Shown: positions 5,357-20,369, counted from the stretch's first letter. The stretch is DNA of 64,000 bases from Amnibacterium sp. (GCF_051956055.1 NZ_JBQCGC010000095.1:19456-83455), one strand, 5' to 3'. Notes: generated from the letters alone by a model not told the origin. Numbers and translations: made by a program.

Positions 5357-6598
5357 ATGAGCGCGGTGACCGGTGCGGGGATGTTCCGCTCCCTCCGTGT
5401 GCACGACTACCGCCTGTGGGCCTCCGGTGCGATCGTCTCCAACGTCGGCACATGGATGCAGCGGACGACGCAGGACTGGATCGTCCTCACCCGGCTGACG
5501 CACCACGACGCGTTCGCGGTCGGTGTCACCACGGCGCTGCAGTTCGGGCCGCAGCTGTTCCTCTCCCCCGTCACCGGGTACGTGGCGGACCGGGTGCCGA
5601 AGCGCACGCTGCTCACCATCACGCAGGCGACCATGGGCATCCTCGGCCTCGGGCTGGGTGTCCTGGTGCTGACGGGCGCGGGCACGCTCCTCGAGGTCTA
5701 CGGCTTCGCGCTGCTGCTCGGCATCACCGCCTCGTTCGACGCCCCCGCCAGGCAGAGCTTCGTCTCCGACCTGGTCGGACCGGAGGACGTCTCCAACGCG
5801 GTCGCCCTCAACTCCGCCTCCTTCAACCTTGCGCGGCTGCTGGGCCCCGCGGTCGCGGGCCTGCTCACGGAGGCGGTCGGCCCGGGCTGGGTGTTCGTGA
5901 TCAACGCGGCCAGCTTCGCCGCGGTGCTCACCTCGCTGCGCTTCATCCACGCGCCCGCCTTCGACGCGGCGGGACGCCCGCACCGATCCTTCAGCGACAT
6001 CGGCGAGGGCTTCACGACCGTCGTGCGGCGGCGCGACCTCGCGATCGTCTTCGTCATGGTGGCGGTGCTCGGCACGTTCGGCCTGAACTTCGCGATCTAC
6101 GCGTCGACGATGGCGGTCCTCTTCGGTCAGGGAGCGACCGGGTACGGGCTCCTGTCCTCCGCGCTCGCGATCGGCGCGGTGACCGGAGCGCTGCTCTCCG
6201 CCCGCCGCCCCGCACCGCGGTTCCCGCTGCTCGTGCTCGCGGGCGTGCTGTTCGGCGTCGGCCTGCTGCTCGGATCGGTCGCTCCCTCGTACCTGTGGCT
6301 CGCGATCGTGCTGCCGCTCGTCGGGGTGGCCGCCCAGACCTTCATGACCACCGCGAACGGGCTGGTCCAGATGGGGGTCGACCGCGTGGTCCGCGGTCGG
6401 GTGATGGCGCTCTACATGGCCACGGTCATGGGCGGCACCGTGCTCGGCGGCCCGCTGATCGGGTGGATCGCGAACGTCCTCGGCCCCCGGGACGGCCTCA
6501 TCGCCGGTGGACTCGCGGGGCTGGCGACGGCCGCGATCGGCGCGGTCTACCTCCGTCGGCATGCAGGCGAGCCCGCCCCGGAGCTCCGCACGCAGTAG
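5357..6598 (+). CDS. MFS transporter (DUF894/MFS_3-type)
   Basis: MFRSLRVHDYRLWASG, GTWMQRTTQDW, DAPARQSFV, ~12 hydrophobic helices; TATACT -10 at 5343-5348. Confidence 0.9.
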   Translation: MSAVTGAGMFRSLRVHDYRLWASGAIVSNVGTWMQRTTQDWIVLTRLTHHDAFAVGVTTALQFGPQLFLSPVTGYVADRVPKRTLLTITQATMGILGLGLGVLVLTGAGTLLEVYGFALLLGITASFDAPARQSFVSDLVGPEDVSNAVALNSASFNLARLLGPAVAGLLTEAVGPGWVFVINAASFAAVLTSLRFIHAPAFDAAGRPHRSFSDIGEGFTTVVRRRDLAIVFVMVAVLGTFGLNFAIYASTMAVLFGQGATGYGLLSSALAIGAVTGALLSARRPAPRFPLLVLAGVLFGVGLLLGSVAPSYLWLAIVLPLVGVAAQTFMTTANGLVQMGVDRVVRGRVMALYMATVMGGTVLGGPLIGWIANVLGPRDGLIAGGLAGLATAAIGAVYLRRHAGEPAPELRTQ

Positions 6599-6603
6599 CC
6601 CGT

Positions 6604-6726
6604 GCGCATCGCGGGCCGTCCAGGGCCGCGGTGCGTCCAGCCGCAGCGGGGACGACCCCCCGCCCACACGACCCGACCCACCCACGCGCATCGCGGCCCG
6701 TTCAGGGCCGCGGAGCGTCCAGCCGC
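6604..6726. repeat. REP-like family C: two 41-nt direct repeats, each an imperfect hairpin
   Basis: 6604-6644 and 6686-6726 match at 38/41; arms CGCATCGCGGCCC / GGGCCGCGG(T/A)GCG; between convergent genes. Confidence 0.85.
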
Positions 6727-6761
6727 GCCGCAGCGGCGGCGGCGGCGGCGCGGCAATGAAA

Positions 6762-7649
6762 TCAGAGCAGGTCGGCGGCGAGCGCGAGGGCGCCGATCAC
6801 GCCGGGGGAGTCCGGCACACCGGGGGCGACCAGTACCTCCGACGGGTCGGACACCGACAGCGCCTTCGGGCCGTAGCCGCGAGCGATCGCCGGGAGGGCG
6901 GCTCGCGTCGCCTCGAGCAGGCCGGGGGAGAGCATCACGCCGCCCCCGAGCACGACCTTCTCCGACCCGGTCGTGAGGATCACGCTGTAGGCCATCTGCG
7001 CGATGTACGAGGCGAGCACGGCGATGCGGCCCGCGCGCTCCGACTCCGGGAACGAGGACGCGTCCGCACCCCACCTGCCGAGCACCGCCGGCCCCGCGGT
7101 CAGGCCCTCGAGGCAGTCGCCGTGGAACGGGCAGTTGCCGGCGTAGTCGTCGTCGGGGTGCCTGCGCACCAGGAGGTGGCCCACCTCCGGCCAGCCGTCG
7201 CCGCCGATGGGGCGCCCGTCGACGACGATCCCGACGCCGACCCCGGTCCCGATCGTGGCGTAGGCGAGGGAGGAGGTGCCGCGGCCCGCCCCGTAGCGGA
7301 GCTCCCCCACCGCGGCACCGAGGACGTCGCTCACGAACGCCGACGGGGTGCCGCGCGGCACGACGCGGCCGAGCAGGTCGACGTCCGCCCAGCCGGGCTT
7401 CGGGGTCGTGGTGATCCAGCCGTACCGGGCGCTGGCGGGGTCCGCGTCCACGGGGCCGAAGGAGGCCAGGCCGATCGCCTCCACGGCATCCTCGGCCCCC
7501 GCCTCGGCGATGAAGTCGTGGATCCGACCGATCGTCTCGTCGGCCGTGGTCGTGGGGAAGCGTCCGGTGAGCACCGGGACGTCGGGGGCGTCCGCCCGCG
7601 CGGCCGCGCAGACCACCTTCGTGCCGCCCGTCTCGATGCCCACGATCAT
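6762..7649 (-). CDS. ROK family sugar kinase (fructokinase-like)
   Basis: MIVGIETGGTKVVCA, IGLASFGPVD, TIGTGVGVG, EVGH...CPFHGDCLEG Zn motif as in ScrK/YdhR-type fructokinases. Confidence 0.9.
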   Translation of the reverse strand: MIVGIETGGTKVVCAAARADAPDVPVLTGRFPTTTADETIGRIHDFIAEAGAEDAVEAIGLASFGPVDADPASARYGWITTTPKPGWADVDLLGRVVPRGTPSAFVSDVLGAAVGELRYGAGRGTSSLAYATIGTGVGVGIVVDGRPIGGDGWPEVGHLLVRRHPDDDYAGNCPFHGDCLEGLTAGPAVLGRWGADASSFPESERAGRIAVLASYIAQMAYSVILTTGSEKVVLGGGVMLSPGLLEATRAALPAIARGYGPKALSVSDPSEVLVAPGVPDSPGVIGALALAADLL

Positions 7650-7838: not shown

Positions 7839-9530
7839 GTGACGACCTCACCCGTCGACCCCACCACCTCCGGCGCCTGGCAGGCGCTCACCGACCTCGC
7901 CGAGGACTTCGCGCCGGACCTCCGCGCCTGGTTCGAGGACGAGGGGCGCGCCGCCCGCTACACCTTCCAGGCCGCCGACCTCACCGTGGACCTCTCGAAG
8001 AACCTCGTGACGGAGGAGATCCTCGGGCACCTCCTGGAGATCGCGCGCACCGTCGACGTCGCCGGGCGGTACCGGGCGATGCTCTCCGGCGAGCACATCA
8101 ACGTCACCGAGGACCGCGCGGTGCTCCACACCGCCCTGCGGCGCCCGGCGGGGGGCGCGCTCGAGCCGGCTGCGCCCCTGACCGTCGACGGCCAGGACGT
8201 CGACCACGACGTGCACGAGGTGCTCGCCCGCATCGCGACGTTCGCGGACGCCGTACGGGACGGTTCCTGGACCGGCGTGACCGGCAAGCGCGTCGAGACG
8301 GTCGTGAACATCGGCATCGGCGGCTCGGACCTCGGGCCCGTGATGGTCTACGAGGCGCTGAAGCCCTACGTGCAAGCGGGCCTCGAGGCGCGGTTCGTGT
8401 CGAACATCGACCCGACCGACCTCTTCGAGAAGACCGCGGACCTCGACCCGGAGACGACGCTGTTCATCGTCGCCTCGAAGACGTTCGGCACCCTCGAGAC
8501 CCTCACGAACGCGCGGCTCGCCCGCGACTGGCTCTGGAAGGGGCTCGCGGACGCCGGCGCGATCGAGGACACCGACGAGTCGCGCCGCGACGCGGTCTCG
8601 AAGCACTTCGTGGCCGTGTCGACCGCGCTCGACAAGGTGGCGGCGTTCGGGATCGACCCCGCGAACGCGTTCGGGTTCTGGGACTGGGTGGGCGGCCGCT
8701 ACTCCGTCGACTCCGCGATCGGCACGTCGCTCGCGATCACGATCGGGCCCGATCGGTTCGCCGAGTTCCTGGCCGGCTTCCACGCCGTCGACGAGCACAT
8801 GCGGACCGCGCCGCTCGAGTCGAACGTGCCCGTCCTGATGGGCATGCTGAACGTCTGGTACTCGAACTTCCTCGGCGCGCAGAGCCACGCGGTGCTGCCC
8901 TACGCGCAGTACCTGCACCGGTTCCCCGCGTACCTGCAGCAGCTGACGATGGAGTCGAACGGCAAGAGCGTCCGGTGGGACGGCTCCCCGGTCGTCACGG
9001 ACACCGGCGAGGTCTTCTGGGGCGAACCGGGCACGAACGGCCAGCACGCCTTCTACCAGCTCATCCACCAGGGCACCCGGCTGATCCCCGCCGACTTCAT
9101 CGCCGTGGCGAACCCCGCGCACCCGCTGCGGGACGGCGACACCGACGTGCACAGCCTCTTCCTCGCGAACTTCTTCGCGCAGACGAAGGCGCTGGCCTTC
9201 GGGAAGACGGCGGAGGAGGTCCGGGCGGAGGGGACCGCGGAGGCCGTCGTACCCGCCCGCACGTTCAGCGGCAACCGCCCGACGACCTCGATCCTCGCGC
9301 CGGCGCTGACCCCCTCGGTCGTCGGCCAGCTGATCGCGCTCTACGAGCACATCACGTTCGTGGAGGGCACCGTCTGGGGCATCGACTCGTTCGACCAGTG
9401 GGGCGTCGAGCTCGGCAAGCAGCTCGCGCTGCAGATCGCGCCGGCCGTCGAGGGCGACACCGAGGCGCTCGCGTCGCAGGACCCGAGCACGAAGTCCCTC
9501 ATCGCGAAGTACCTCGAGCTCCGGCGGTAG
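7839..9530 (+). CDS. pgi: Glucose-6-phosphate isomerase
   Basis: [50 protein letters not shown]. Confidence 0.98.
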
Positions 9531-9572
9531 CGCCTCCGGGCGCGTGTCCCGCCCCCCGCCGGAGCAGTTCCC

Positions 9573-9661
9573 GGAGCACGACAGCAGGACCCTGGAGCAT
9601 CAGCAGGCCGGGTAAGCCCCCTGGGTCCTGCCGATGGTGCCGGTTCCTGCTGTCGTGCTCC
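9573..9661. repeat. Long hairpin (family D): terminator or REP-like element
   Basis: 17-bp perfect inverted repeat GGAGCACGACAGCAGGA (9573-9589)/TCCTGCTGTCGTGCTCC (9645-9661) with inner CATCAGCAGG/CCTGCCGATG stem. Confidence 0.75.
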
Positions 9662-9691
9662 CCAGCGCGGAGCGGTGGTGCGCGGGTCGGC

Positions 9692-9880
9692 TCAGGCGGC
9701 GCGACCCGCGTGGCCGAGGTGCACCTTCGGCGCGTCCACGTCGAGCGGGCGGCGCCGGCTGCGGACGGGCGCGGAGGCGCTCCCCGGCAGTTCGACGCCG
9801 GTCCGGTGCGTGCGCGGACCGTGGGCGAGCAGCGGGTTCGTGGCGGTCGCGGTGGCGAACCGGCTCAGGAGGCGGCTCAT
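9692..9880 (-). CDS. Hypothetical microprotein, 62 aa
   Basis: Strong GC3 codon bias; ATG overlaps the stop of the 37-aa upstream ORF (ATGA). Confidence 0.55.
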   Translation of the reverse strand: MSRLLSRFATATATNPLLAHGPRTHRTGVELPGSASAPVRSRRRPLDVDAPKVHLGHAGRAA

Positions 9881-9990
9881 CGGCCGTCGTGGAACAGCTG
9901 GATGGTCAGCGGGGCGTTGAACTGCAGGGCCGAGTAGCGGTCCCAGCGCAGGAACAGCTCGCGGACCAGTTCGGTGATGCGCGTGGTCAT
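9877..9990 (-). CDS. Hypothetical microprotein, 37 aa (MTTRITELVRELFLRWDRYSALQFNAPLTIQLFHDGR)
   Basis: GAGGGGGAG RBS just upstream of ATG 9990; nearly all third positions G/C. Confidence 0.6.
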   Translation of the reverse strand: MTTRITELVRELFLRWDRYSALQFNAPLTIQLFHDGR

Positions 9991-10027
9991 GGCTCCCCCT
10001 CGGAGTCGTCGATCCGATCTGGATCTC

Positions 10028-10048
10028 TTCGTATGGTAACTGAACGAA
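10028..10048. promoter_or_regulatory. Candidate ROK operator TTCGT-N11-ACGAA overlapping a minus-strand -10 (TACCAT)
   Basis: AT-richer palindrome in the divergent promoter between the microproteins and the ROK regulator. Confidence 0.45.
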
Positions 10049-10089
10049 CGAAGATGTGCGAGTGTTCCCGTGCGACGTGAGGAGGCCCG

Positions 10090-11220
10090 ATGACGCTGCC
10101 CGAACCCCTGGGCGAGACGGCGGCGCGCGCCTTCCGCGCGCTGCTCGACAGCGGCCGCGCCACCCCTCCCGAGCTGGCGGAGGCCCTCGGGGTCACCAAG
10201 CAGACGATCTCCGCGGCCGTCGTCGAGCTGGAGGAGCGGGAGCTCGTGGAGGCCGTCGCGGTCCAGCAGGGCCGGACCGGTCGCTCCGCGCTGCGGTACG
10301 CGCTGCACCGGCGTGCGGGCTGGGTGGCCGGCATCGATCTCGGCTCGGCACGGCTGCGGGTGGCGGCGGCCCGGCTCGACGGCACGGTCGTGGCCGAGCG
10401 ACTCGTCCCGAATCCCGCGCCGACCGTCTCGCGCGAGTGGCCCGACCAGCTCGAGCTGGCCGCGCACGCCCTCGCCGACCTCGCCCACGAGCTCTCCGAG
10501 TCCGAGGGCGGCCTGCTCGGCGCCGCGATCGCGGTCCCGCGTGCCGTCCCCGTGCGGCAGGACCTCCTCGGCCTCGGCGCGGAGGACGTGGACGTGCGGC
10601 TCCTGGCGGCCCTCGCGCCGGTGGCCCCCGCGGCCGTCTGGACCGAGAACGACGTGAACTGCGAGGCGATCGCGCAGCTCGTGTACCGGCCGGGTCCGAC
10701 CCCGCCGAGCGTGCTCCACCTGCACGTGGGCGCCGGCGTGGGCGTGGCGCTCATCATGGAGGGCACGATCCTGCGCGGGGCGCGAGGCCGCGCGGGGGAG
10801 ATCAAGGGTCTCGCATCGCCGATCGGGCGCGGCCGGACGGTCGAGGACGCCCTGTCGCTCGCCGGTCTGCTGGAGGCGGCGGGTCACTCGCCCGCCGCGC
10901 CGCTGCCCGGGGCGCTCGACGACCTGTTCGCGGCCGCGGCGACCGGGGATCCGGCGGCCGAGGCCGCGCTCGCGGAGGAGGCGACGGGGGTCGCGCTCCT
11001 GCTGCGGGATCTCACCGCCCTGGTGGATCCGGATCTCGTCGTGCTCTCCGGCGCCCTCGGCGCACGGCCCGAGCTCCACGACCGCGTCGTCGCCGCGTGC
11101 GCGCGGCAGGGCGTCGAACCGGTGCCCGAGCCGGACCCGCTCGGGGATGCGGCTCCCGTGCTCGGCGCGGCGGCGCTGGCCGCGGACCTCGTGCTCGGCG
11201 CCCTGGCCCCTCGGGGCTGA
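10090..11220 (+). CDS. ROK family transcriptional regulator
   Basis: N-terminal HTH (TPPELAEALGVTKQTIS...GRTGRS), GIDLGS, ENDVN, GVGVALIMEG..LRGARGRAGEI; AGGAGG RBS. Confidence 0.9.
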   Translation: MTLPEPLGETAARAFRALLDSGRATPPELAEALGVTKQTISAAVVELEERELVEAVAVQQGRTGRSALRYALHRRAGWVAGIDLGSARLRVAAARLDGTVVAERLVPNPAPTVSREWPDQLELAAHALADLAHELSESEGGLLGAAIAVPRAVPVRQDLLGLGAEDVDVRLLAALAPVAPAAVWTENDVNCEAIAQLVYRPGPTPPSVLHLHVGAGVGVALIMEGTILRGARGRAGEIKGLASPIGRGRTVEDALSLAGLLEAAGHSPAAPLPGALDDLFAAAATGDPAAEAALAEEATGVALLLRDLTALVDPDLVVLSGALGARPELHDRVVAACARQGVEPVPEPDPLGDAAPVLGAAALAADLVLGALAPRG

Positions 11221-11226
11221 GCGGGC

Positions 11227-12255
11227 TCAGCCGGCCGCGATCAGCCGATCGACCGCGGCGACGACCACGGTCGGCGCCACGGACGTGAGGCACGGATGGC
11301 CGGGCACGGGGCAGAGCGTGGCGCGGGTGCCCGCGCAGGGCGCGTCCCGCTGCCCGAGGAGCTCGACCGGCACCCCGTACGGCGCCCAGCGCTCGGGCGG
11401 CACGACCGCGGAGAAGAGGCTCACGATGGGTCGGCCGACGGCGGCCGCGAGATGCGCGGGTCCCGTGTTGCCGACCACCACGACGGAGGCGCCCGCGAGC
11501 GCGAGCGCCGTGCCGCCGAGGTCGAGCAGGCCGCCGAGGTCGATGCCGTCGCTGCCGGCGACCCGCGCGGTCAGCTCCCGCTCGTGCTCGCCGCCGGTGA
11601 CCGCGACGGCATGCCCCGCCTCCGCCAGCAGTCGCACGACCTCGGCGAAGTGGTGCGCCGGGTACTCCCTGGCCGGGTACTGCGCGCCGGGATGCACGAC
11701 GACGTACTCGTCGGGCAGCGCATCGAGCGTCGCGGGTCTCGCCGGAGGGAGCCGCACGTGCAGCCGCCCGTCGTCCTCGTCGGGGAGCGCGTAGCCGGCG
11801 AGGCGCACGATAGCGAGGTTCCGCTCCGGCTCGGGGATGTCCTCCGGGAACGTCTCCCCCGGGATCCACCGCTCGTCGAGCAGCCCGGCGGAGGCCTCCA
11901 CGGACGCGCCGAGGATCCGCGGCACCCCCGCGAGCCGGAGGAGGAGTGCGATCGGCAGCGGCGACTGGTGGAACGACGTGAGGATGATCGCCTCGTCCGG
12001 ACGGCACTCCTCGACCACGGCGTTCACGTCGGCGACGAGCTCGGCGTCGACGGGCCGGTCCACGGCCGTGATCCACGGGATGCCGACCACCCGCAACTGG
12101 TCGATGCCCGGGAGGAGGCGCGCCGCGGACCTCCCCCGCGGCCCGGCCATCATCCACACCTCGGTGTCCTCACGCGCGGCGACGGCGCGCACGGCGGGAC
12201 CCGCCATGAGCACGTCGCCCATGCTGTCGAGGCGGACGAGGAGCACCCGCCGCAC
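11227..12255 (-). CDS. Glycosyltransferase family 9 (heptosyltransferase-like)
   Basis: VLLVRLDSMGDVLM, VVVHPGA, VVVGNTGPAHLAAAVG. Confidence 0.88.
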   Translation of the reverse strand: MRRVLLVRLDSMGDVLMAGPAVRAVAAREDTEVWMMAGPRGRSAARLLPGIDQLRVVGIPWITAVDRPVDAELVADVNAVVEECRPDEAIILTSFHQSPLPIALLLRLAGVPRILGASVEASAGLLDERWIPGETFPEDIPEPERNLAIVRLAGYALPDEDDGRLHVRLPPARPATLDALPDEYVVVHPGAQYPAREYPAHHFAEVVRLLAEAGHAVAVTGGEHERELTARVAGSDGIDLGGLLDLGGTALALAGASVVVVGNTGPAHLAAAVGRPIVSLFSAVVPPERWAPYGVPVELLGQRDAPCAGTRATLCPVPGHPCLTSVAPTVVVAAVDRLIAAG

Positions 12256-12260
12256 GGGGC

Positions 12261-12848
12261 TCAGCGCTTCAACGCGGCGCGCGCGGTGTCGGCGAGCTTC
12301 GCCGCCGCGTTCGCCCTGGTGTCGGCGTCGGGCACGCCCGCGATCGCGAGCCGGACCGCCTTGCGGATCTGCTCGGCCTCGAGCAGCCAGGCGATGTGCC
12401 CCAGGAACTCGGAGGCGTGCTCCTCCGGAGGCAGGTCCTTCGCCGCGGGGCTCAGCCCGAGCTTCGGGAGCACGATCTCGTGCGCGACGACGAAGGCGCC
12501 GATGCCGTACGCGGCACCCGCCCAGAGCTTCGTCCTGGGGAGGTACTCGGCCGCGACCGAGTACGCCGCGACGGTGACCACCGAGAAGCCGAAGTGCACG
12601 GCGAGCACACCCCAGGGGACCTGGTTGCCGTTGTACTCGTAGGTCGCGCCGTCCGGGTCGACGCCGCGCTGCTTCAGGAAGGTCACGGGCGGCACCTCCC
12701 GATCGGGCGTGCGCGGCGGGAACAGGGCCTCCCAGCCCATCTTCACGGCACCGGAGGTGAGCCCGGCGACGACGCCGGCGACCAGCGCGGCGCCCGGGCG
12801 GCGGCTCTCCTTGGCGGACAGGTCGAGCAGTCCGAACGGCGTCTTCAT
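12261..12848 (-). CDS. DUF1440 / YagU-like membrane protein
   Basis: GLTSGAVKMGWEALFPPRTP, HFGFSV, SEFLGHIAW..EQIRK resemble YagU (DUF1440). Confidence 0.8.
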   Translation of the reverse strand: MKTPFGLLDLSAKESRRPGAALVAGVVAGLTSGAVKMGWEALFPPRTPDREVPPVTFLKQRGVDPDGATYEYNGNQVPWGVLAVHFGFSVVTVAAYSVAAEYLPRTKLWAGAAYGIGAFVVAHEIVLPKLGLSPAAKDLPPEEHASEFLGHIAWLLEAEQIRKAVRLAIAGVPDADTRANAAAKLADTARAALKR

Positions 12849-12936
12849 GGCTGCATCGTCCCGTGCGCCTGTTACCGCTGTCTGGGAACCGGCTGCAACC
12901 CCTTGCGGAGGAGCTCGCACCGGCCCCTCGAGTCGG

Positions 12937-13587
12937 TCAACCGGGCACGAGGGCGGGCACGAGCACCGCGAGCAGCACCGCGGGCAGGGCCACGAGGGCG
13001 AGCCCGGCCGCTGCCGGCGCCGGGCGATCTCGGCGCCGCTCGGCCACGACGAACTCGGCGACCGCGGCCGCGAGCACCACCACGGTGAGCACGCGGACAC
13101 CCCCGCTCGGTGGGGAACCCGTGAGGAGCCCCCCGATCTGCGTGAACGCCACCGTCCCCCACGGCACGATCCCGAGCACCGCCGACCAGTGCAGGGGGCG
13201 CGGATCGCCGCCCGGTCGGTGCAGGGACCGCAGCAGCACGGCGCCACCGCTCGCGGCGTAGACGAGGACGATCGCCACCGCGTCGGCGATCCCGTTCAAG
13301 CGGGCGACCAGGACCAGCACGATCGGGCTCGCCGCTCCGAGCGCCCAGGCGACGGCGCCGCCCGCGAGCCGCCCGCGCGCCCGGATCACCGCGACCACCG
13401 CGACGAGCGCGGGAGGGATCAGGACCGCGTCCCCGACGCGGAGGTCGGCGATGCGGACGGGACCGCCCGGCAGGACCGCGAACACGGGACGGGCCACCGG
13501 CCCGTGCAGCACGGCGACGACGCCGAGCAGCACCGTGACGAGCGCGAGGCCCGCCGAGAGCCACCCGGCACGCCGCGCGTCGTTCAC
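12937..13587 (-). CDS. 7-TM membrane protein, degenerate heliorhodopsin-like (no Lys)
   Basis: Seven hydrophobic segments; PVRIADLRVGDAV, SPIVLVLVARLNGIADAVA, PLHWSAVLGIVPW resemble heliorhodopsin helices B-E; GTG start overlaps upstream stop (GTGA). Confidence 0.6.
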   Translation of the reverse strand: MNDARRAGWLSAGLALVTVLLGVVAVLHGPVARPVFAVLPGGPVRIADLRVGDAVLIPPALVAVVAVIRARGRLAGGAVAWALGAASPIVLVLVARLNGIADAVAIVLVYAASGGAVLLRSLHRPGGDPRPLHWSAVLGIVPWGTVAFTQIGGLLTGSPPSGGVRVLTVVVLAAAVAEFVVAERRRDRPAPAAAGLALVALPAVLLAVLVPALVPG

Positions 13588-14225
13588 GGCAGCGCGGCGC
13601 CCGTCGGGTCGCTCTCGGCCGCCGGGATGCGGCGGTCGGTCCACCGGTCGACCAGCCAGTCGCCCTCGACGCGGTCGAGGATCACCACCCCGGTGTTCGG
13701 CAGCCCGTGCTCGGCGCCGAAGTCGTCGGGCACGTTGACGGCCCGAGCCGACGCCCACGCGCGGATCGCGGCGCCGTGGCTCACGCAGAGCACCGAGTCC
13801 GCGCCGTCGAGCGCCGCGGCGATCGCCCGGTCGAAGCGCTCGAAGAACGTCTCCCCCGTCTCCGGTGCGCCGGGCACCGTCGCGGCGAGATCACCGGTCG
13901 CCCAGGCGAGCACCGTCCCGAGGTAGCGCAGGTGCGCCTCGCGGTCGGCGCGCAGCTCGAGCTCGCCCGCGAGGACCTCGCGCAGCCCCGCGTCCGTGGC
14001 GAGGTCGAGACCCCGCGCCGCCGCGATGGGGGTCGCGGTCTGGACGGTGCGGGCGAGCGGGGACGCGACCACCCTGTCGATGCGCTCGTCGGCGAGGACA
14101 CCGACCAGCGCATCGGCCTGCCGCCGCCCGGTGGGCGTCAGCTCCGCGCCCGGGATCGCCGTGTCGAGCAGCCCCTGCACGTTCGACCGGGTCTCACCAT
14201 GACGGACCAGGATCACGCGGCTCAT
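13584..14225 (-). CDS. Histidine phosphatase family protein (phosphoglycerate mutase-like)
   Basis: VILVRHGET (RHG motif), SPLARTVQTA, LREVLAG, VSHGAAIR. Confidence 0.92.
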   Translation of the reverse strand: MSRVILVRHGETRSNVQGLLDTAIPGAELTPTGRRQADALVGVLADERIDRVVASPLARTVQTATPIAAARGLDLATDAGLREVLAGELELRADREAHLRYLGTVLAWATGDLAATVPGAPETGETFFERFDRAIAAALDGADSVLCVSHGAAIRAWASARAVNVPDDFGAEHGLPNTGVVILDRVEGDWLVDRWTDRRIPAAESDPTGAALP

Positions 14226-14295
14226 GCCGCCATCCTTCCCGAACAGTCGTGCACACCCGCTGCGCGCATCCGGATCGCGCGCGTACCGTGCCGCC

Positions 14296-14493
14296 ATGGA
14301 CAGCGACGTCATCGGCAGCTCGAACCCCGGCCCCGAGGAGGGTGAGCCCCGCTCGCCCGGGCAGGGCACGGAGGATCCCGGTCCCGGCGGGGAGATCCCC
14401 GGGCGCGGCTCGTCGAACCCCGGGCCCGCGGAACCGGACGAGGTGGAGGAGCCGGGGCGGGGATCCGAGAACCCGGGTCCGGAGGAGGACTGA
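14296..14493 (+). CDS. Small acidic Gly/Pro/Glu-rich repeat peptide, 65 aa
   Basis: TACCGT -10 six nt before ATG; GC3-biased; four (N/D)PGP-containing repeats. Confidence 0.6.
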   Translation: MDSDVIGSSNPGPEEGEPRSPGQGTEDPGPGGEIPGRGSSNPGPAEPDEVEEPGRGSENPGPEED

Positions 14494-15336
14494 TCACGCC
14501 TCCCGCGTGATCTCCACCTCCACGAACAGCCGGCTGCCGAACGGCCCGGCGTAGATCCCGCGGAGCGGCGCCACGTCGCCGTAGTCCCTCCCCCTGCCCA
14601 CGAGCACGTGCCGCTCGCCGATCGGGAGGTCGTTCGTCGGGTCGAAGCCGTGCCACGAGCCGCAGAACCACTCGACCCACGCGTGGGACTCACCCGTCAC
14701 GGGGACGCCGACCGGGAAGGCCGGGTCGGGGTGGAGGTAGCCCGAGACGTACCTGGCCGGCACGCCGATCGCCCGCAGCGCACCGATCGCGATGTGCGCG
14801 ATGTCCTGGCACACACCGCGGCCGTGCGCCCACGCCTCCTGCGCGGTGGACTGCACCCCGGTGACGCCGGCCATGTAGACGATGCGGCGGTGGATCTCCC
14901 GGCAGACCTCGAGCGCGGCGGCGCAGGGAGCGAGGTCCGCGGCCGCCGCTCGGGCGAGCTCCACGACCTCCGCCGGCGGCTCGGTCGACACGGTCTGCTG
15001 GAGCTGCTCGACGGTCTCGACGGACGACTGCGCGGCCCGCGCGAGCTCCTCCCAGGTCAGCGGGGCCGAGCGGTGCTCCTCGCGCCGCACCTCCACGAGG
15101 CTCGTCGCCGTGAGCGAGAGCTCCCGATGAGGCGTGAGGATCTCGAACGAGTTCACGCGGGTGCCCCAGTAGTCGACGTACCCGTGCGACGAGGAGATGG
15201 GGGAGATCTCGAGATGCGAGGCGAGCACGAACTGGCCGTCGTCGCTGCCGGGAAGCATCCTGGCCTCGTTGTACGACTGGGTGACCTCACCGCCGTAGTG
15301 ATAGCCGGTCGCATGCCTGACCCGGAGTCGGCTCAT
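14494..15336 (-). CDS. Transglutaminase family protein (Bact_transglu_N + transglutaminase core)
   Basis: LRVRHATGYHY, GVCQDIAH, ARYVSGYL, SHAWVE, GFDPTN, GRGRDYGDVAP. Confidence 0.93.
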   Translation of the reverse strand: MSRLRVRHATGYHYGGEVTQSYNEARMLPGSDDGQFVLASHLEISPISSSHGYVDYWGTRVNSFEILTPHRELSLTATSLVEVRREEHRSAPLTWEELARAAQSSVETVEQLQQTVSTEPPAEVVELARAAAADLAPCAAALEVCREIHRRIVYMAGVTGVQSTAQEAWAHGRGVCQDIAHIAIGALRAIGVPARYVSGYLHPDPAFPVGVPVTGESHAWVEWFCGSWHGFDPTNDLPIGERHVLVGRGRDYGDVAPLRGIYAGPFGSRLFVEVEITREA

Positions 15337-15365
15337 GCCGCACCACGCATCCTTCTCGCCACGGC

Positions 15366-16292
15366 TCAGAACTCCCCGACCCACACGGGCGTCGCGTTCG
15401 TCGGGAAGTAACGCTGCCGGATCGCCTCCGACGCCGCGGAGGTCGCGCCCTGCACCGCCTCCATCTGCACCCCGAGCTGCGCCAGGATCTCGTCGATGGG
15501 GCGGTACTCGAGCTCGGAGCGGATCTGGCCGAGCACCCGGAGCGCGCGATCGGAGGTCCCGACGCGCTCGTTGCGCGGCTCCAGCTGCCGGAGGCACGAC
15601 TCCGCCCGCTGGATCGAGAACAGGATCGAGCGGGGGAACAGCCGATCCACCGCGAGGAACTCGGCCGCGTTCTGCGCCGACGGGTTGCCACGGTAGGTCC
15701 GGAGGTAGGCCTCGTAGCCGCCGCACGAGCGCAGCAACGTCGTCCCGCTCGGGCCGTTGTTGCCGGTGGGGGCATGGGTCGCGAGCAGCCGGGCCGTCAT
15801 GTCGGCGCGCTCGATGCTCCGGCCGAGGGTGAAGAACTGCCACGCGTCGTCACGGCTCGTCGCGCTCTCGATGATGCCGACGGCGAGCGCCGTGCGCTCC
15901 CGCACCCAGGCGAAGTACTCGGCCACGTGGGCAGGCGATACCTGCCGCGGCATGCGCGACCTGGTGGTGTTCAGGCACTCCCAGAGCTCGGTGCTCACGA
16001 TCTCCCGCGCGCGTCTCGCGTTCTCCCGCGCCGCGGTGAGCGAGTACGCGATCGACGCGGGATGGGTGCGGTCGATGGCGAGGACCGCGAGGACGTCGCC
16101 CCGGCGGAGGGGGCCGTCGGCGGGGGGCGGGGAGCCCATCACCGCGAGCAGCGCCCTGCAGGCGGTGTCCTCGTCGACCCACGGGTCCTCGAGCAGCAGC
16201 TGCAGGTGCACGTCGAGGATGCGGGCGGTGCCGTCGCCGCGCTCGATGTACCGCCCGATCCAGAACAGGCTCTCCGCGATCCGGCTCAGCAC
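15366..16292 (-). CDS. Alpha-E domain protein (DUF403)
   Basis: LSRIAESLFWIGRYIER, ARENARRAREIVSTELWE, LGRSIERAD (two ER motifs). Confidence 0.93.
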   Translation of the reverse strand: MLSRIAESLFWIGRYIERGDGTARILDVHLQLLLEDPWVDEDTACRALLAVMGSPPPADGPLRRGDVLAVLAIDRTHPASIAYSLTAARENARRAREIVSTELWECLNTTRSRMPRQVSPAHVAEYFAWVRERTALAVGIIESATSRDDAWQFFTLGRSIERADMTARLLATHAPTGNNGPSGTTLLRSCGGYEAYLRTYRGNPSAQNAAEFLAVDRLFPRSILFSIQRAESCLRQLEPRNERVGTSDRALRVLGQIRSELEYRPIDEILAQLGVQMEAVQGATSAASEAIRQRYFPTNATPVWVGEF

Positions 16293-18034
16293 GGGGCGCC
16301 CTCGTCCGTGGCGTTCGGGGTGGTCTCGAGGCTCGGGGTCTCGAGGCTCGGGGTGGTCTCGAGGCTCGCTCCGCTCGCACCTCGACCGGCGGAGGGCATC
16401 GACTGCTGCTGTTGCTGCTGCTGCTCGCCGGTGTCGTCGACGACGTCGAGCGGCGCGCGATCGGGCTCGTGGGACGGGGGCTCGGCGATCCGCTCGGCCC
16501 GGTCGTGGGCCGCCTGGCCGCGCACGATCGCGCCCACGGACCGCTCCTGCTGGATCGGTCCCGACCCGATGACCCAGGTGTCCTTCGAACCGCCGCCCTG
16601 GCTCGAGTTGACGACCAGCTGCCCCTCCGGCAGCGCGACCCGGGTGAGGCCGCCCGGCAGCACCCACACGTCGCGCCCGTCGTTCACGGCGAACGGCCGC
16701 AGGTCGGCGTGCCGCGGGCGCACCCCCTCCTCCACGAGGGTCGGGATCGTCGAGAGCTGCACGACCGGCTGCGCGATCCAGCCCCGCGGATCGGCGATCA
16801 GCGTCCGGCGCAGCGCGTCGAGCTGCGCGGTCGTCGCCATCGGCCCGACGACGAGCCCCTTGCCTCCCGAACCGTCCACGGGCTTCACCACGAGCTCGTC
16901 GAGCCGGTCGAGCACCTCCGCGAGTGCCTCCGGCTCCTCGAGGCGCCAGGTGTCGACGTTCCGCAGCCTCGGCTCCTCGCCCAGGTAGTAGCGGATGAGG
17001 TCGGGCAGGTAGGTGTAGACGAGCTTGTCGTCGGCGACCCCGTTGCCGACCGCGTTGGCGATCGTGACGTTCCCCAGCCTGGCGGCGAGCATCAGGCCGG
17101 GGGAGCCGAGCAGCGAGTCGGCACGGAACTGCAGCGGGTCGAGGAACTCGTCGTCGACCCGGCGGTAGATGACGTCGACCCGGGTCGGGCCCGCGGTCGT
17201 CCGCATCCACACGCGACCGCCCGAGCAGAACAGGTCGCGCCCCTCCACCAGCTCCACGCCCATCAGGCGCGCGAGGAGGGTGTGCTCGAAGTAGGCCGAG
17301 TTGTACACGCCGGGGGTGAGCACGACGACGGTCGGATCGTCGATCCCGGGAGGCGCGGCGGCGCGGAGGGCCTGCAGCAGCCGCCGTGGGTACTCGCCGA
17401 CCGGTCGGATGCGCATCTGGACGAACAGCTCCGGCAGCGTCTGCGCCATCACCCGCCGGTTCGAGATGACGTAGCTCACGCCCGACGGCACGCGCACGTT
17501 GTCCTCGAGCACCCGCCAGTCGCCGTGCTCGTCGCGGATCAGGTCGATCCCCGACACCTGGATCCGCACCCCGTTCGCCGGCACGACCCCGGCCGCCTGC
17601 CGGTGGAAGTGGGAGGAGGAGCTGATCAGCGCCGCCGGGACGACCCCGTCGCGCACGGCCGCCTGCGGCCCGTACACGTCGGCGAGGAACGCCTCGAGCG
17701 CCCGGACCCGCTGCTGCACACCGGCCTCGACGAACGCCCAGTCGTCCGCCTCGATCACCCGCGGCACCGCGTCGAGGGGGAACGGGCGCTCCTCGCCCGC
17801 GAAGTCGAAGGTGACGCCCTGCGCGAGGTACGAGTCGGCGAGCGCCGCGGTCCGCCCCCGCAGCTCCGCCTGGGTCATGGTGGCGAGCGCGCCGTGCACC
17901 TCCCGGTACGGAGCGCGGGGCACCGCGTCGGCCGTGGTCATCGGCAGCTCGGCGAACATCTCGTCGAACGGCCCGGTCGCGCCGGGCGCGGAGGGGCTGC
18001 CCGTGCGCGCGTACCCGTCGAAGAGGTCCGCCAT
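16286..18034 (-). CDS. Circularly permuted type 2 ATP-grasp protein
   Basis: FPLDAVPR, VLEDNVRVPSGVSY, NSAYFEH, YRRVDD, NAVGNGVADDK, VVKPVDGSGG, DLRPF, VNSSQGGGSKDTWV; polyQ tail. Confidence 0.93.
   Translation of the reverse strand: MADLFDGYARTGSPSAPGATGPFDEMFAELPMTTADAVPRAPYREVHGALATMTQAELRGRTAALADSYLAQGVTFDFAGEERPFPLDAVPRVIEADDWAFVEAGVQQRVRALEAFLADVYGPQAAVRDGVVPAALISSSSHFHRQAAGVVPANGVRIQVSGIDLIRDEHGDWRVLEDNVRVPSGVSYVISNRRVMAQTLPELFVQMRIRPVGEYPRRLLQALRAAAPPGIDDPTVVVLTPGVYNSAYFEHTLLARLMGVELVEGRDLFCSGGRVWMRTTAGPTRVDVIYRRVDDEFLDPLQFRADSLLGSPGLMLAARLGNVTIANAVGNGVADDKLVYTYLPDLIRYYLGEEPRLRNVDTWRLEEPEALAEVLDRLDELVVKPVDGSGGKGLVVGPMATTAQLDALRRTLIADPRGWIAQPVVQLSTIPTLVEEGVRPRHADLRPFAVNDGRDVWVLPGGLTRVALPEGQLVVNSSQGGGSKDTWVIGSGPIQQERSVGAIVRGQAAHDRAERIAEPPSHEPDRAPLDVVDDTGEQQQQQQQSMPSAGRGASGASLETTPSLETPSLETTPNATDEGAPC
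16317..16392 (+). repeat. REP-like family B copy with tandem partial duplications, inside a CDS
   Basis: 16351-16392 identical to 2169-2210; GGTCTCGAGGCTCG occurs three times in 16317-16368. Confidence 0.9.
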
Positions 18035-18057
18035 GACCGCAGCGTAGCCAGGGCCGT

Positions 18058-18073
18058 GTTCCGGGCTTGTTAC
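18058..18073 (-). promoter_or_regulatory. Candidate GlnR box GTAAC-N6-GGAAC upstream of the ATP-grasp operon
   Basis: Minus strand reads GTAAC aagccc GGAAC, 11 nt before -10 TACGCT (18046-18041); resembles actinobacterial GlnR consensus gTnAc-n6-GaAAc. Confidence 0.5.
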
Positions 18074-18129
18074 AGGTGTCGGGGCCGTCGACCGCCGTCC
18101 GGACCGGCCCTGGCAATACGATCGCGCCC

Positions 18130-19302
18130 ATGTCGGGCCCGCCGTGGAGCGCGCGCCGCGCGCTGTCGGACGGGCTGCGCGCTGCGGGCCTCTGGTACGG
18201 GGGCGCCGTCCTGCTGCTCGCGTGGGGCGCCACCGCGGTCCTCGGCGCCGCGCCGCCGACGCTCGGGCTGCTCGCCGTCACGTCCGCGGTCGTCGCCGCG
18301 GGGGGCCTGCTGTTCCTGCTGCCGGTGTCCCGGCCGGCGGGCGCCGTCATCGTGCTCGCCGCGGTCGTCGTCATGGCCGCGGGCTTCGCGGCGTCCCTGG
18401 TGGTCCTCGCACGGTCGTCGGTGCCGCTGACCAGCACCGCCGGGTTCCCGCTGTCGCCGATGAAGAGCGCGATGCTGGCGTTCGCGGTGAACGCGGGCAG
18501 GCGCAGGGCCCCGCTGACCGCCGGGCTCGCTCTCGTGGCGGTCAGCGAGACGCTGTGCGCCATCGCCGGCCCCGCGCTCGGCGTGCGGTGGGGGTTCGAC
18601 CTGCCGGAGGCGGCGACCCTCGCGCTCGTCGCCCTGGCCTCGACGGGGTTCCTCATCGCCGGGCGCCGCACGGAGCAGCCGAGGCGCGCGTCGCGGGCGG
18701 CCGCGGGGGAGGAGGCGCTCACCCGCACCAGGTCGATCGCCCGGTCGCGGGCGGCGGCGGTCGTGCACGACACGGTGCTCGGGGACCTCGCGGCGATCGC
18801 GGCGACGGGACCCGGCCGGCTCCCTCCCGCCGCCGTCGGCCGGCTGGAGCGCACGCTCGAGCTGCTCGCCTCGCCGGACTGGGCCGCTCCGGCCGCCTTG
18901 CCGGAGTCGATCGGCGGCCCAGTGCTCGCCGCCATCGCACGCCGGGAGGCCGACGGCCTCGTCGTGCGGCTCGACGGCGAGCTGACCGAGCTCCGCGGGC
19001 TCGGCACGGAGGTCGAGCAGGCGCTGGCCGCCGCGATCGAGCAGTGCCTCGTGAACACCGCCAAGCATGCGGGGACGGAGATCGCGGACGTGACCGTGCT
19101 CGCGGACCGGGACGGGCTGACCGTCATGGTCGCCGACGCGGGATCGGGGTTCGATCCCGACGCCGTGGACCGCAACCGGCTCGGGATCAGCACCGCCGTG
19201 CGCGCGCGCATCGCGGAGGTCGGCGGCACCGTCAGGGTCTTCGCCCAGCCGGGCGTCGGGACGACCGTGCTGCTCACCGTGCCGAAGGGCGCCGGCGCAT
19301 GA
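18130..19302 (+). CDS. Membrane sensor histidine kinase-like protein (HisKA_3/HATPase_c type)
   Basis: TM N-half; VVHDTVLGDL, CLVNTAKHAG (N box), VADAGSGFD (G1), GLG-like RLGIS, QPGVGTTV. Confidence 0.8.
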   Translation: MSGPPWSARRALSDGLRAAGLWYGGAVLLLAWGATAVLGAAPPTLGLLAVTSAVVAAGGLLFLLPVSRPAGAVIVLAAVVVMAAGFAASLVVLARSSVPLTSTAGFPLSPMKSAMLAFAVNAGRRRAPLTAGLALVAVSETLCAIAGPALGVRWGFDLPEAATLALVALASTGFLIAGRRTEQPRRASRAAAGEEALTRTRSIARSRAAAVVHDTVLGDLAAIAATGPGRLPPAAVGRLERTLELLASPDWAAPAALPESIGGPVLAAIARREADGLVVRLDGELTELRGLGTEVEQALAAAIEQCLVNTAKHAGTEIADVTVLADRDGLTVMVADAGSGFDPDAVDRNRLGISTAVRARIAEVGGTVRVFAQPGVGTTVLLTVPKGAGA

Positions 19303-20369
19303 GCCTCGCCGCCCGAGACCCCCTGCTGCTCGGCGCTCCCGCGCCCGTGCTCGCCGCGGGCGGTGCCGCCGTCGCGGCCGTGGTCGCTGCCGTCGCGACC
19401 GTCCAGGGTCGCGCGCAGATCGCCTCCTGGCCGATCGAGGCGGCAGCGCTCGCCGCCCTCGTCGCCGCGGGCGTCGTCGTCGTGCGGTTCGCCAGCCCGT
19501 TCCGGGCGCCGTTCCGCGCCCGGTCGCACATCGCCGTGCTCGCCCTCGTGCTGCTCGCCGCGGTGCTCGACGAGGCGGCGCAGATCGGGCGGGACGTCCT
19601 GATCCACGACGACTGGGGCCTCGTCGTCGTGCCCGTCTTCCTGCTCGTCCTCGCCACGCTGCGACCCCCGGGGGAGGTCCTCGTCGGCGGGCTGGTCGCG
19701 ACCGCGGTCATCACCCTGACCGTGCTCGTGCTCTCCCCCTTCCTCCTCGCGCCCCTGCCACCGCTCGCCAGGGTCGCGATCACGATCACGCAGGTGCTCC
19801 CGCCCGCGCTCGCGGCCGCCGCGCTCGCCCGGATCACGGTGCGCAGGCTGGAGGTGCCCCACGCCTCCCCCGAGCCGGTGCCCGACCCGACGCTGTCGGT
19901 GCAGCAGGAGGCGATCGCTCGGCTCGAGGCCGAAGCGATCCCGCTGCTGTCGGCACTCGCGCGGACCGGCACCGCGTCGCCCGCGCAGGCGGACCGGGCG
20001 CGCGCGATCATGACCGAGCTGCGGGCGGCGCTGGTGGCGGACCTGGCCAGGGGCTGGCTCGCGGAGGCGGGCTTCGGGGTCGACGACCCGGACGCCTACG
20101 CCGAGCGGATGACGCCCGAGCAGCGCACCGCGCTGCGCACGACCGTCGCGAGCCTGCCGCTCGCCGACTTCGAGCGGCCGGGGACCGCTTCCGTGCGCGG
20201 GCAGGACCGCGAGGCGCGCCTGGTGCTGGACCTGCCCGTCGCCGCGCGGCCGCGCCGCACCCGGGTCGCACCGCTCGTGCCGCTGCTGCGCACCGCGTTC
20301 CCGCGGGCCGACCTGCGGATGGACGACGCGCACGTCCTCGTGGAGGTGGCCTTCACCGTGCCGCGGTGA
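19299..20369 (+). CDS. Hypothetical membrane protein, possible degenerate kinase partner
   Basis: ATGA overlap with upstream gene; ~6 TM helices followed by cytoplasmic helical domain lacking recognisable ATPase boxes. Confidence 0.7.
   Translation: MSLAARDPLLLGAPAPVLAAGGAAVAAVVAAVATVQGRAQIASWPIEAAALAALVAAGVVVVRFASPFRAPFRARSHIAVLALVLLAAVLDEAAQIGRDVLIHDDWGLVVVPVFLLVLATLRPPGEVLVGGLVATAVITLTVLVLSPFLLAPLPPLARVAITITQVLPPALAAAALARITVRRLEVPHASPEPVPDPTLSVQQEAIARLEAEAIPLLSALARTGTASPAQADRARAIMTELRAALVADLARGWLAEAGFGVDDPDAYAERMTPEQRTALRTTVASLPLADFERPGTASVRGQDREARLVLDLPVAARPRRTRVAPLVPLLRTAFPRADLRMDDAHVLVEVAFTVPR

Follow-up and report, generated by a model that had tools for sequence, protein, structure and literature searches.

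We identified a gene for a diverged heliorhodopsin (HeR) homologue, here called HeRL, in a stretch of DNA from Amnibacterium sp. (GCF_051956055.1, NZ_JBQCGC010000095.1:19456-83455). The whole stretch of 64,000 nucleotides (nt) is referred to as the window. The gene (12937..13587, minus strand) starts with a GTG codon and encodes 216 amino acids with seven predicted transmembrane (TM) segments and no lysine. The length, the seven segments and the absence of lysine had been described in an initial reading of the window from its sequence alone (the sequence-only reading), and translation of the open reading frame (ORF) and an AlphaFold2 model bear them out. We are highly confident that HeRL is a true HeR homologue that has lost retinal binding. 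The gene overlaps that of a histidine phosphatase, and the best overall explanation, which we consider somewhat better than an even proposition, is that HeRL, as a retinal-free HeR scaffold, docks or regulates this acidic, co-translated enzyme.

Homology to heliorhodopsins and the chromophore site

HeRL scores 14.4 bits against the Pfam family PF18761 (cut-off 26.7) and 13.4 bits against NF038020 (cut-off 100). Its homology to HeRs is based on four independent lines of evidence: a direct phmmer match, a chain of profile matches leading to canonical HeRs, an hhalign comparison, and the predicted structure. The only matches of a phmmer search against all PDB chains are to HeR 48C12 (E = 2.4e-4), with residues 85-146 of HeRL aligned on residues 110-176. 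Three sequence blocks had been lined up with 48C12 in the sequence-only reading; the second and third are reproduced letter for letter by this match, and the first is consistent with a weak HMMER placement (D48-E62). A search of 1.84 billion representative proteins with a profile built from 38 family members (A1) retrieved 70 proteins, the last of which are canonical HeRs that carry RWTEY and SLVAK motifs (P0104, E = 1.1e-5, and P0105). All eight of the Lys-less intermediates from this search that were scanned are above the PF18761 threshold (32–127 bits), and relatives from the same clade that pass it include P0042 (31.9 bits), P0045 (46.7 bits) and P0061 (117.8 bits). A direct hhalign comparison of A1 with P0104 spans 173 columns, from TM1 to TM6, with a probability of 92.7% and E = 4.4e-7.

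The structure predicted by AlphaFold2 from the 38-sequence alignment has a mean predicted local distance difference test score (pLDDT) of 90.5 and a predicted template modelling score (pTM) of 0.86. It contains helices at residues 3-28, 51-70, 78-97, 103-121, 130-155, 162-184 and 192-213, and a beta-hairpin (32-39/42-50) joins TM1 and TM2. A beta-hairpin at this position is a hallmark of HeRs. The ten best Foldseek matches of the model in the PDB are all HeR chains (48C12 and TaHeR), with E-values from 3.6e-7 to 1.9e-5 and template modelling scores of 0.74–0.81, and the type-1 rhodopsins start at E = 9e-3, at least about 10^3 worse. A positive-inside count on the model helices places 12 arginines in the N-terminus and intracellular loops (ICL) 1 to 3 versus five in the outside loops, a distribution consistent with the inverted topology in which the N-terminus is cytoplasmic. 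A profile search and a structure comparison had been set beforehand as a check on the relationship; both gave significant matches to HeRs, and the predicted topology has seven TM helices.

To describe the chromophore site we relied on the functional residues that Kovalev et al. 2020 (PMC7049168) list for HeRs, among them His23, His80, Ser76 and Ser237 of the Schiff-base cavity. The sequence and numbering of 48C12 were recovered from the PDB alignment. Columns were read from a MAFFT alignment of 86 sequences, consisting of 80 rows from a Lys-less clade, 12 of which are the window family, and six canonical HeRs. The column of the Schiff-base lysine, K241, contains no lysine in any of the 80 clade rows, and none of them has a lysine anywhere inside TM7. 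The residue found instead is Thr, Ala, Val, Pro, Gly, Leu or Ser, with Arg in four rows; in the window family it is Ala or Gly. The arginine (GVVLR or GLLAR) occurs in a small Microbacteriaceae subgroup (L015, L018, P0088 and P0090). TM7 of HeRL (residues 192-213; 12949..13014, minus strand) has neither Lys nor Ser. MAFFT places V199-A-L-P-A203 at SLVAK and hhalign leaves TM7 unaligned, so that the earlier statement that SLVAK reads ALVAL stands for the absence of lysine and not for the exact register, which cannot be fixed. The loose register is immaterial because the protein has no lysine at all.

Losses in the retinal pocket extend across the clade. The F203 column is Leu in all 80 rows, the F206 column is mostly Ala, Ser or Thr, the H23 column is mostly Leu and the H80 column mostly Arg; F72, M115, N138, Q213 and N207 are also replaced. 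In HeRL the columns of His23, His80, Ser76 and Ser237 hold L14, A66, V62 and V199. Most of the clade retains R104-W105-x-E107, and the counterion E107 is present in 48 of 63 rows outside the window family. By MAFFT, all 12 rows of the window family have Ala in the E107 column, the columns of R104, W105 and Y108 hold small hydrophobic residues, and those of S237, S242 and W246 are all Val. In HeRL itself the segment V79-G84 of TM3 (VAWALG; 13336..13353, minus strand) takes the place of canonical R104-W105-x-E107-Y108 in both the MAFFT columns and hhalign, with E107 falling on A82 (MAFFT) or on a gap beside A82/L83 (hhalign). The loss of the helix C RWxEY motif reported from the sequence alone is therefore upheld.

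Other HeR features are kept everywhere in the alignment: the hairpin proline of the P40 column, an Asp or Glu at the dimer-interface position D127, I170, P172 and W173 of the GIVPW motif, and a [YW]-R-x-x-R motif in the cytoplasmic loop between TM6 and TM7. P34, the equivalent of P40, is found in 11 of the 12 family rows, and P142-W143 is invariant. The TM5 motif G139-I-V-P-W-G144 (13156..13173, minus strand), identified by the PDB match and the alignments as the counterpart of the HeR G169-I-V-P172-W173 pi-bulge, shows no variation across the 80 clade rows, and its GIVPW portion is shared with canonical HeRs. The clade also has invariant or near-invariant residues of its own: Y110 (Phe in HeRs), G144 (Ile), R165 (Tyr), T168 (Ile), L172 (Phe), N98 and Q150. 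All seven sit in the outer half of TM3 to TM6.

The absence of lysine is not remarkable in itself, and we rejected it as such on the basis of genome-wide lysine usage. The genome has a GC content of 75%, lysine makes up 1.67% of its residues, and 47 of 344 ORFs of 180–260 amino acids (13.7%) are free of lysine, as is the coupled phosphatase. Since Lys-free ORFs are not unusual in such a genome, the lysine count alone is weak evidence. The informative point is that a HeR homologue has no lysine at the Schiff-base position.

Distribution and selection

In this analysis the Lys-less clade comprises approximately 64 clusters at 50% identity, all in Microbacteriaceae, and its genes are presently annotated as encoding hypothetical proteins. 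The closest relatives of HeRL are in the genus Amnibacterium (A. soli, A. setariae, A. kyonggiense and metagenome-assembled genomes (MAGs)). In a sample of 201 Microbacteriaceae genomes, matches occur in 19, of which 16 are Lys-less and three are canonical SLVAK HeRs; the latter come from genomes of 1.6–1.8 Mb with about 50–53% GC. A class-wide sample gave matches in 105 of 401 genomes, and the best 27 outside the family are all canonical HeRs with SL[VLI]AK. In a maximum-likelihood tree a single branch separates the 80 Lys-less rows from the six canonical HeRs (SH-like approximate likelihood ratio test (SH-aLRT) 99). The counterion-less, phosphatase-linked group is monophyletic (SH-aLRT 98) and sister to a member of the RWWEW type. 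The tree suggests a likely single loss of the Schiff-base lysine, which falls short of proof because canonical HeRs are thinly sampled in it.

Some members of this collection deserve separate mention. The contig L023 (JABBOB010000045.1), which belongs to a MAG labelled 'Acidobacteria bacterium', carries the complete Amnibacterium synteny block with proteins 72–92% identical to those of the window (74–92% without the HeR-like protein), and almost certainly represents Microbacteriaceae DNA that was mis-binned or given the wrong label. In two metagenomic Lys-less sequences, P0086 and P0088, non-homologous C-terminal tails replace TM7, perhaps through frameshifts, assembly errors or real decay in some lineages. 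The longer clade members P0071 and P0075 were checked for domain fusions, and only loop expansions or doubtful N-terminal extensions were found.

No canonical HeR was found in the window genome. The genome does encode two type-1 rhodopsins, at G000:C37:127585-128265 (plus strand) and G000:C112:9464-10171 (minus strand), which match PF01036 at 87 and 77 bits and retain the DxxxK lysine; their TM3 motifs are DSE-like (RYIDWTVSVPLLVVE) in the first and DTE (RYADWAITVPLLIVE) in the second. It also has crtB (C39:33159-33911), and blh (PF15461) was not detected by a search that finds it in four related genomes. The remark in the sequence-only reading that no carotenoid or blh genes lie nearby carries little weight given the rhodopsins and crtB elsewhere in the genome.

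The seven Amnibacterium-type copies, including that in the window, are all intact and share the same start position. Approximately 40 further clusters at 90% identity were found in the sequence search with no stop or frameshift, and the family alignment has 27 invariant columns. The ratio of non-synonymous to synonymous substitution rates (dN/dS) of the whole HeR-like gene is 0.44 (Nei-Gojobori, 21 pairs, range 0.32–0.56, dS approximately 0.7), compared with 0.38 for the phosphatase and 0.14–0.20 for four flanking genes, although the extreme GC bias at third codon positions (GC3) probably inflates every ratio. Constraint is unevenly distributed along the protein. The TM3-TM6 core is at 0.31, with TM4 at 0.30, ICL2 at 0.32 and TM5 at 0.27, and TM1 and TM7 are at 0.66 and 0.69. 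Taken together, we regard it as very probable that HeRL is under purifying selection. As TM7, the chromophore helix of HeRs, is the least constrained helix here, retinal binding appears to have been lost and another function retained.

The phosphatase link and proposed function

The HeRL gene is preceded by a gene encoding a histidine phosphatase of 213 amino acids (His_Phos_1, branch 1; 13584..14225, minus strand). The two share the four nucleotides GTGA (13584..13587, minus strand), so that the GTG start codon of HeRL is read from the sequence as lying on the TGA stop codon of the phosphatase. The phosphatase scores 134.8 bits against PF00300 (cut-off 21.7) and its catalytic RHG and SHG motifs are intact; conservation of LVRHGET and VSHGAA extends to every linked copy. 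The translational coupling described in the sequence-only reading corresponds to this overlap, which is real. The cytoplasmic enzyme is acidic, with a net charge of -10 in the window and -8 to -17 across the copies, and its N-terminus does not resemble a signal peptide. The nearest solved relatives are CobC/alpha-ribazole phosphatases (E = 1e-11 to 1e-12, best 4.5e-12), and no equivalog threshold was reached in a scan of NCBIfam. A C-terminal DPTG tail was considered as a mark of the linked phosphatases and rejected, as it is found in unlinked homologues too.

The 4-bp overlap is present in all seven Amnibacterium-type loci, but synteny within one genus is little proof. It is also present in G156, a more distant genome assigned to the same genus in which the phosphatase is 59% and the HeR-like protein 51% identical, and in the metagenomic relatives P0044, P0045 and P0048 (approximately 43–51% identity over aligned segments). 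In total, it occurs at all 11 loci with a visible upstream gene in the counterion-less subclade, which answers the question of conserved linkage raised by the sequence-only reading, and these loci include differing flanks, either upstream (MFS/TetR) or downstream. Lys-less members outside this subclade have no phosphatase link. On the Pfam-annotated contigs their neighbours are unrelated (AzlCD/glyoxalase, TetR), and no partner common to the whole Lys-less clade was found there; a GC3-based gene caller was too noisy in clade loci of 66–76% GC. Because the overlap is confined to the counterion-less subclade, the pairing therefore arose with, and is specific to, that subclade. Homologues of the phosphatase with 42–48% identity stand alone, with no HeR-like gene, in other Microbacteriaceae.

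The invariant or near-invariant polar residues of the family cluster in ICL2 (R120, LHRPGGDP) and ICL3 (Y/E183, R184-R186, D187). The basic motif R184-R185-R186 of ICL3 (13030..13038, minus strand) was placed by the family alignment, hhalign and 48C12 numbering; neither R184 nor R186 varies within the family, and hhalign aligns R184 with 48C12 K218, which is AbHeR K216, and R186 with 48C12 K220. The AbHeR numbering was taken as that of 48C12 minus two because of the correspondences S235/S237, Q211/Q213 and F204/F206. AbHeR, a canonical actinobacterial HeR, binds a glutamine synthetase encoded directly upstream in the same operon, and this binding requires K216, K217 and K220 of ICL3 (Cho et al. 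2022, PMC9529153).

Based on these features, we propose that a single mRNA would yield both proteins, with HeRL translated by termination-reinitiation at the GTGA overlap. The phosphatase may then bind to the Arg-rich cytoplasmic loops of HeRL (R120, H123 and R124 in ICL2, R184-R186 in ICL3), and HeRL would act independently of light as its membrane docking or regulatory subunit. In this way the enzyme would be recruited to, or regulated at, the cytoplasmic face of the membrane, with a presumed effect on its activity or location. This would parallel the binding of glutamine synthetase by AbHeR. We put a functional partnership of the two proteins at close to, or slightly under, an even chance. 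The suggestion of an enzyme-regulating partner in the sequence-only reading is strengthened by the persistence of the overlap across the counterion-less subclade with differing flanks, and we infer the interaction itself. Several points weigh against this explanation. HeRL is itself under the Pfam and NCBIfam HeR thresholds, and its gene evolves faster than all of its neighbours, which could reflect a loose structural role. Since other Lys-less members adjoin unrelated genes, the function of the clade as a whole is not phosphatase-specific, and since homologues of the phosphatase occur unlinked to HeR-like genes, this type of enzyme needs no such partner. A mirror-tree comparison of phosphatase and HeR-like protein gave no sign that the two evolve together (r = 0.09), with low power (six taxa and a star-like tree), and the positive control, transglutaminase and alpha-E, gave r = 0.64. 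Basic cytoplasmic loops are generic in membrane proteins, and high-GC operons often contain 4-bp overlaps.

An alternative is a retinal-free HeR with a job unrelated to the phosphatase, either binding or sensing a small hydrophobic or polar molecule (a lipid, a carotenoid or a metabolite) in the altered retinal pocket or acting as a purely structural dimer in the membrane, with the overlap serving only co-expression. We consider this a possible, though less probable, explanation. It is favoured by the new residues conserved across the clade in the outer part of TM3-TM6 and absent from canonical HeRs, by the change of large pocket residues to small ones, by the lack of a phosphatase link in most clade members and by the missing mirror-tree signal. 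However, coupling holds at 11 of 11 loci despite identities of approximately 43–52% and differing flanks, and the gene neighbourhood offers no ligand candidate. A new ligand or lipid site could also coexist with the phosphatase partnership. The ligand sensor named in the sequence-only reading is neither favoured nor contradicted by these results. The sequence-only reading had also allowed for a decaying remnant, functionless and carried in the operon without disruption so far. The loss of every hallmark functional residue, a dN/dS that is the highest of the neighbourhood (0.44 against 0.14–0.20 for the flanking genes) and the aberrant C-termini of the distant P0086 and P0088 would fit decay, but we judge it very improbable: no stop or frameshift is seen in the seven copies, G156 or the approximately 40 clusters despite a dS near 0.7 and identities down to 48%, dN/dS is below 1 and constraint is strongly patterned (27 invariant columns, a core of 0.31 versus 0.6–0.7 for TM1 and TM7), the start/stop overlap is preserved, and the Lys-less clade has diversified to approximately 64 clusters at 50% identity.

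It is hardly plausible that HeRL is still a photoreceptor, holding a chromophore non-covalently or through another residue and using retinal acquired for the two type-1 rhodopsins. These Lys-bearing rhodopsins and crtB are in the genome, and blh is present in some genomes with Lys-less members (G156, G090 and G177). Yet the protein has no lysine, other residues stand in place of the counterion, Ser237, His23, His80, W105, Y108, F203, F206 and W246, constraint is weakest in TM7 among the helices, and blh goes undetected in the window genome by a search that recovers it in relatives. The description of HeRL as a retinal-independent HeR derivative, made from the sequence alone, is instead upheld by its sequence, its fold and the chain of intermediates above the Pfam threshold. 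Among the readings that keep such a derivative functional we continue to favour the docking or regulation of the phosphatase. A broader extension of it, which we think unlikely as a whole, is that the core function of the HeR scaffold is light-free: it would dock or control soluble enzymes at the membrane, and the chromophore-free Microbacteriaceae lineage would do so constitutively or in response to a cue other than light. HeRL and the phosphatase of Amnibacterium would then form a two-gene signalling or metabolic module, with N98, Y110, Q150, R165 and T168 as a ligand or lipid site that replaces retinal.

The surrounding gene order in Amnibacterium is ATP-grasp, alpha-E, transglutaminase, phosphatase, HeR-like, (GT9), DUF1440, GT9, ROK and pgi. 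Directly upstream of the phosphatase, a block at 14494-18034 (minus strand) encodes circularly permuted ATP-grasp, alpha-E and transglutaminase-like proteins with 82–93% identity across the genus. A DUF1440 membrane-protein gene (PF07274; 12261..12848, minus strand) lies 88 nt downstream of HeRL, and is probably outside the HeRL-phosphatase unit because the synteny that holds in Amnibacterium does not extend to every relative. In three Amnibacterium genomes a GT9-like glycosyltransferase gene is inserted between the HeR-like and DUF1440 genes (spacer of approximately 1.2 kb; L022, L025 and L027 at approximately 5560-6780, corresponding to 12849-12936 in the window), and in the window and three MAGs the spacer is 57–120 nt, a presence/absence polymorphism within the genus. 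Spurious very long ORFs occur in several frames, for example one of 1835 amino acids at 15366-20873 (minus strand), and many overlap within 9000-18000; as these are typical of DNA with 75% GC, raw ORF lists are unreliable in this region. Scans for promoters, terminators and tandem repeats over 12.0–15.0 kb gave nothing informative.

Four host-labelled public runs (X10-X13), whose type was guessed to be RNA, contain a strain approximately 98% identical to the window. Contigs from these runs span the junction of the phosphatase and HeR-like genes, with even coverage across all genes and spacers. We rejected them as evidence of expression, since flat coverage leaves DNA possible. The HeR-like gene of this strain has 13 differences, six at third codon positions and seven at first or second positions.

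Comparison with known systems

The physiological role of HeRs is still disputed. To our knowledge they pump no ions, and the sole functional leads are light-modulated binding of enzymes encoded next to them, such as glutamine synthetase and photolyase. In the lineage described here the scaffold persists together with the likely Asp of the dimer interface and the loop for partner binding; the chromophore site has been lost altogether, and the gene is tied to that of one small enzyme.

Compared with canonical HeRs (48C12, 6su3/6uh3; TaHeR, 6is6; PF18761), HeRL has the same seven-TM fold (Foldseek template modelling scores as given above), the TM1-TM2 hairpin with its proline (P40), charges consistent with a cytoplasmic N-terminus, GIVPW, the Asp at D127 and the Y-[KR]-x-[KR] motif of cytoplasmic loop 3. 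Unlike them, it is without the Schiff-base Lys, the counterion Glu, His23/His80 and Ser237, its pocket aromatics have become Leu, Ala, Ser or Val, and it is approximately 40 residues shorter. It also falls below the Pfam and NCBIfam thresholds, and TM7, among the most conserved helices in HeRs, is its least conserved. The other Lys-less HeR-like proteins of Microbacteriaceae (P0061, P0047, L007 and L009) belong to the same clade (SH-aLRT 99), have no TM7 lysine and share the AQLNG, LVYA, GIVPWG and VRVLT motifs. However, R104-W105-x-E107 persists in them, often along with S237 and W246, and they are approximately 245–275 amino acids long, score above the Pfam HeR threshold and have no phosphatase link.

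Literature searches of partial coverage, in which absence is not proof, turned up no description of a Lys-less HeR or of a HeR-phosphatase pair. At least one large HeR survey demanded a TM7 lysine (PMC9601134), and Lys-less HeR-like proteins would have been filtered out because of this requirement. Published HeR surveys thus miss part of the family, and the subfamily in the window also escapes the Pfam threshold.

Loss of the lysine has precedents in other opsins. Lys-less relatives among type-1 rhodopsins include the 'blind' haloarchaeal opsins (PMC4915679) and, as discussed in PMC10308929, Rh-noK and freshwater FArhodopsins; Lys-less animal opsins have also been described (PMC9368030). The type-1 group (Rh-noK, blind opsins, FArhodopsins and fungal opsin-related proteins) resembles HeRL in that the scaffold remained under selection after the lysine was lost, and its members are often tied to a specific partner gene, such as flotillin for FArhodopsin. 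They differ in being another rhodopsin type with the opposite orientation, distant in sequence. Rh-noK retains a working pocket and is able to pump when the lysine is put back, whereas the whole pocket of HeRL is dismantled.

The closest functional parallels are AbHeR with glutamine synthetase and TfHeR with photolyase (PMC9529153, PMC9769723), in which the gene for a protein of the HeR fold likewise adjoins a soluble-enzyme gene within one operon. AbHeR binds its enzyme through basic residues of ICL3, and the positional equivalent R184 is invariant in the HeRL family. In contrast to these pairs, the partner of HeRL is a histidine phosphatase, the two genes overlap by 4 bp and the interaction is one that we infer. 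Because no chromophore is possible, regulation by HeRL would be constitutive or ligand-driven and not light-driven. The pair of HeRL and phosphatase would thus separate the protein-partner function of HeRs from their photochemistry and provide a simple test case for a light-free HeR scaffold.

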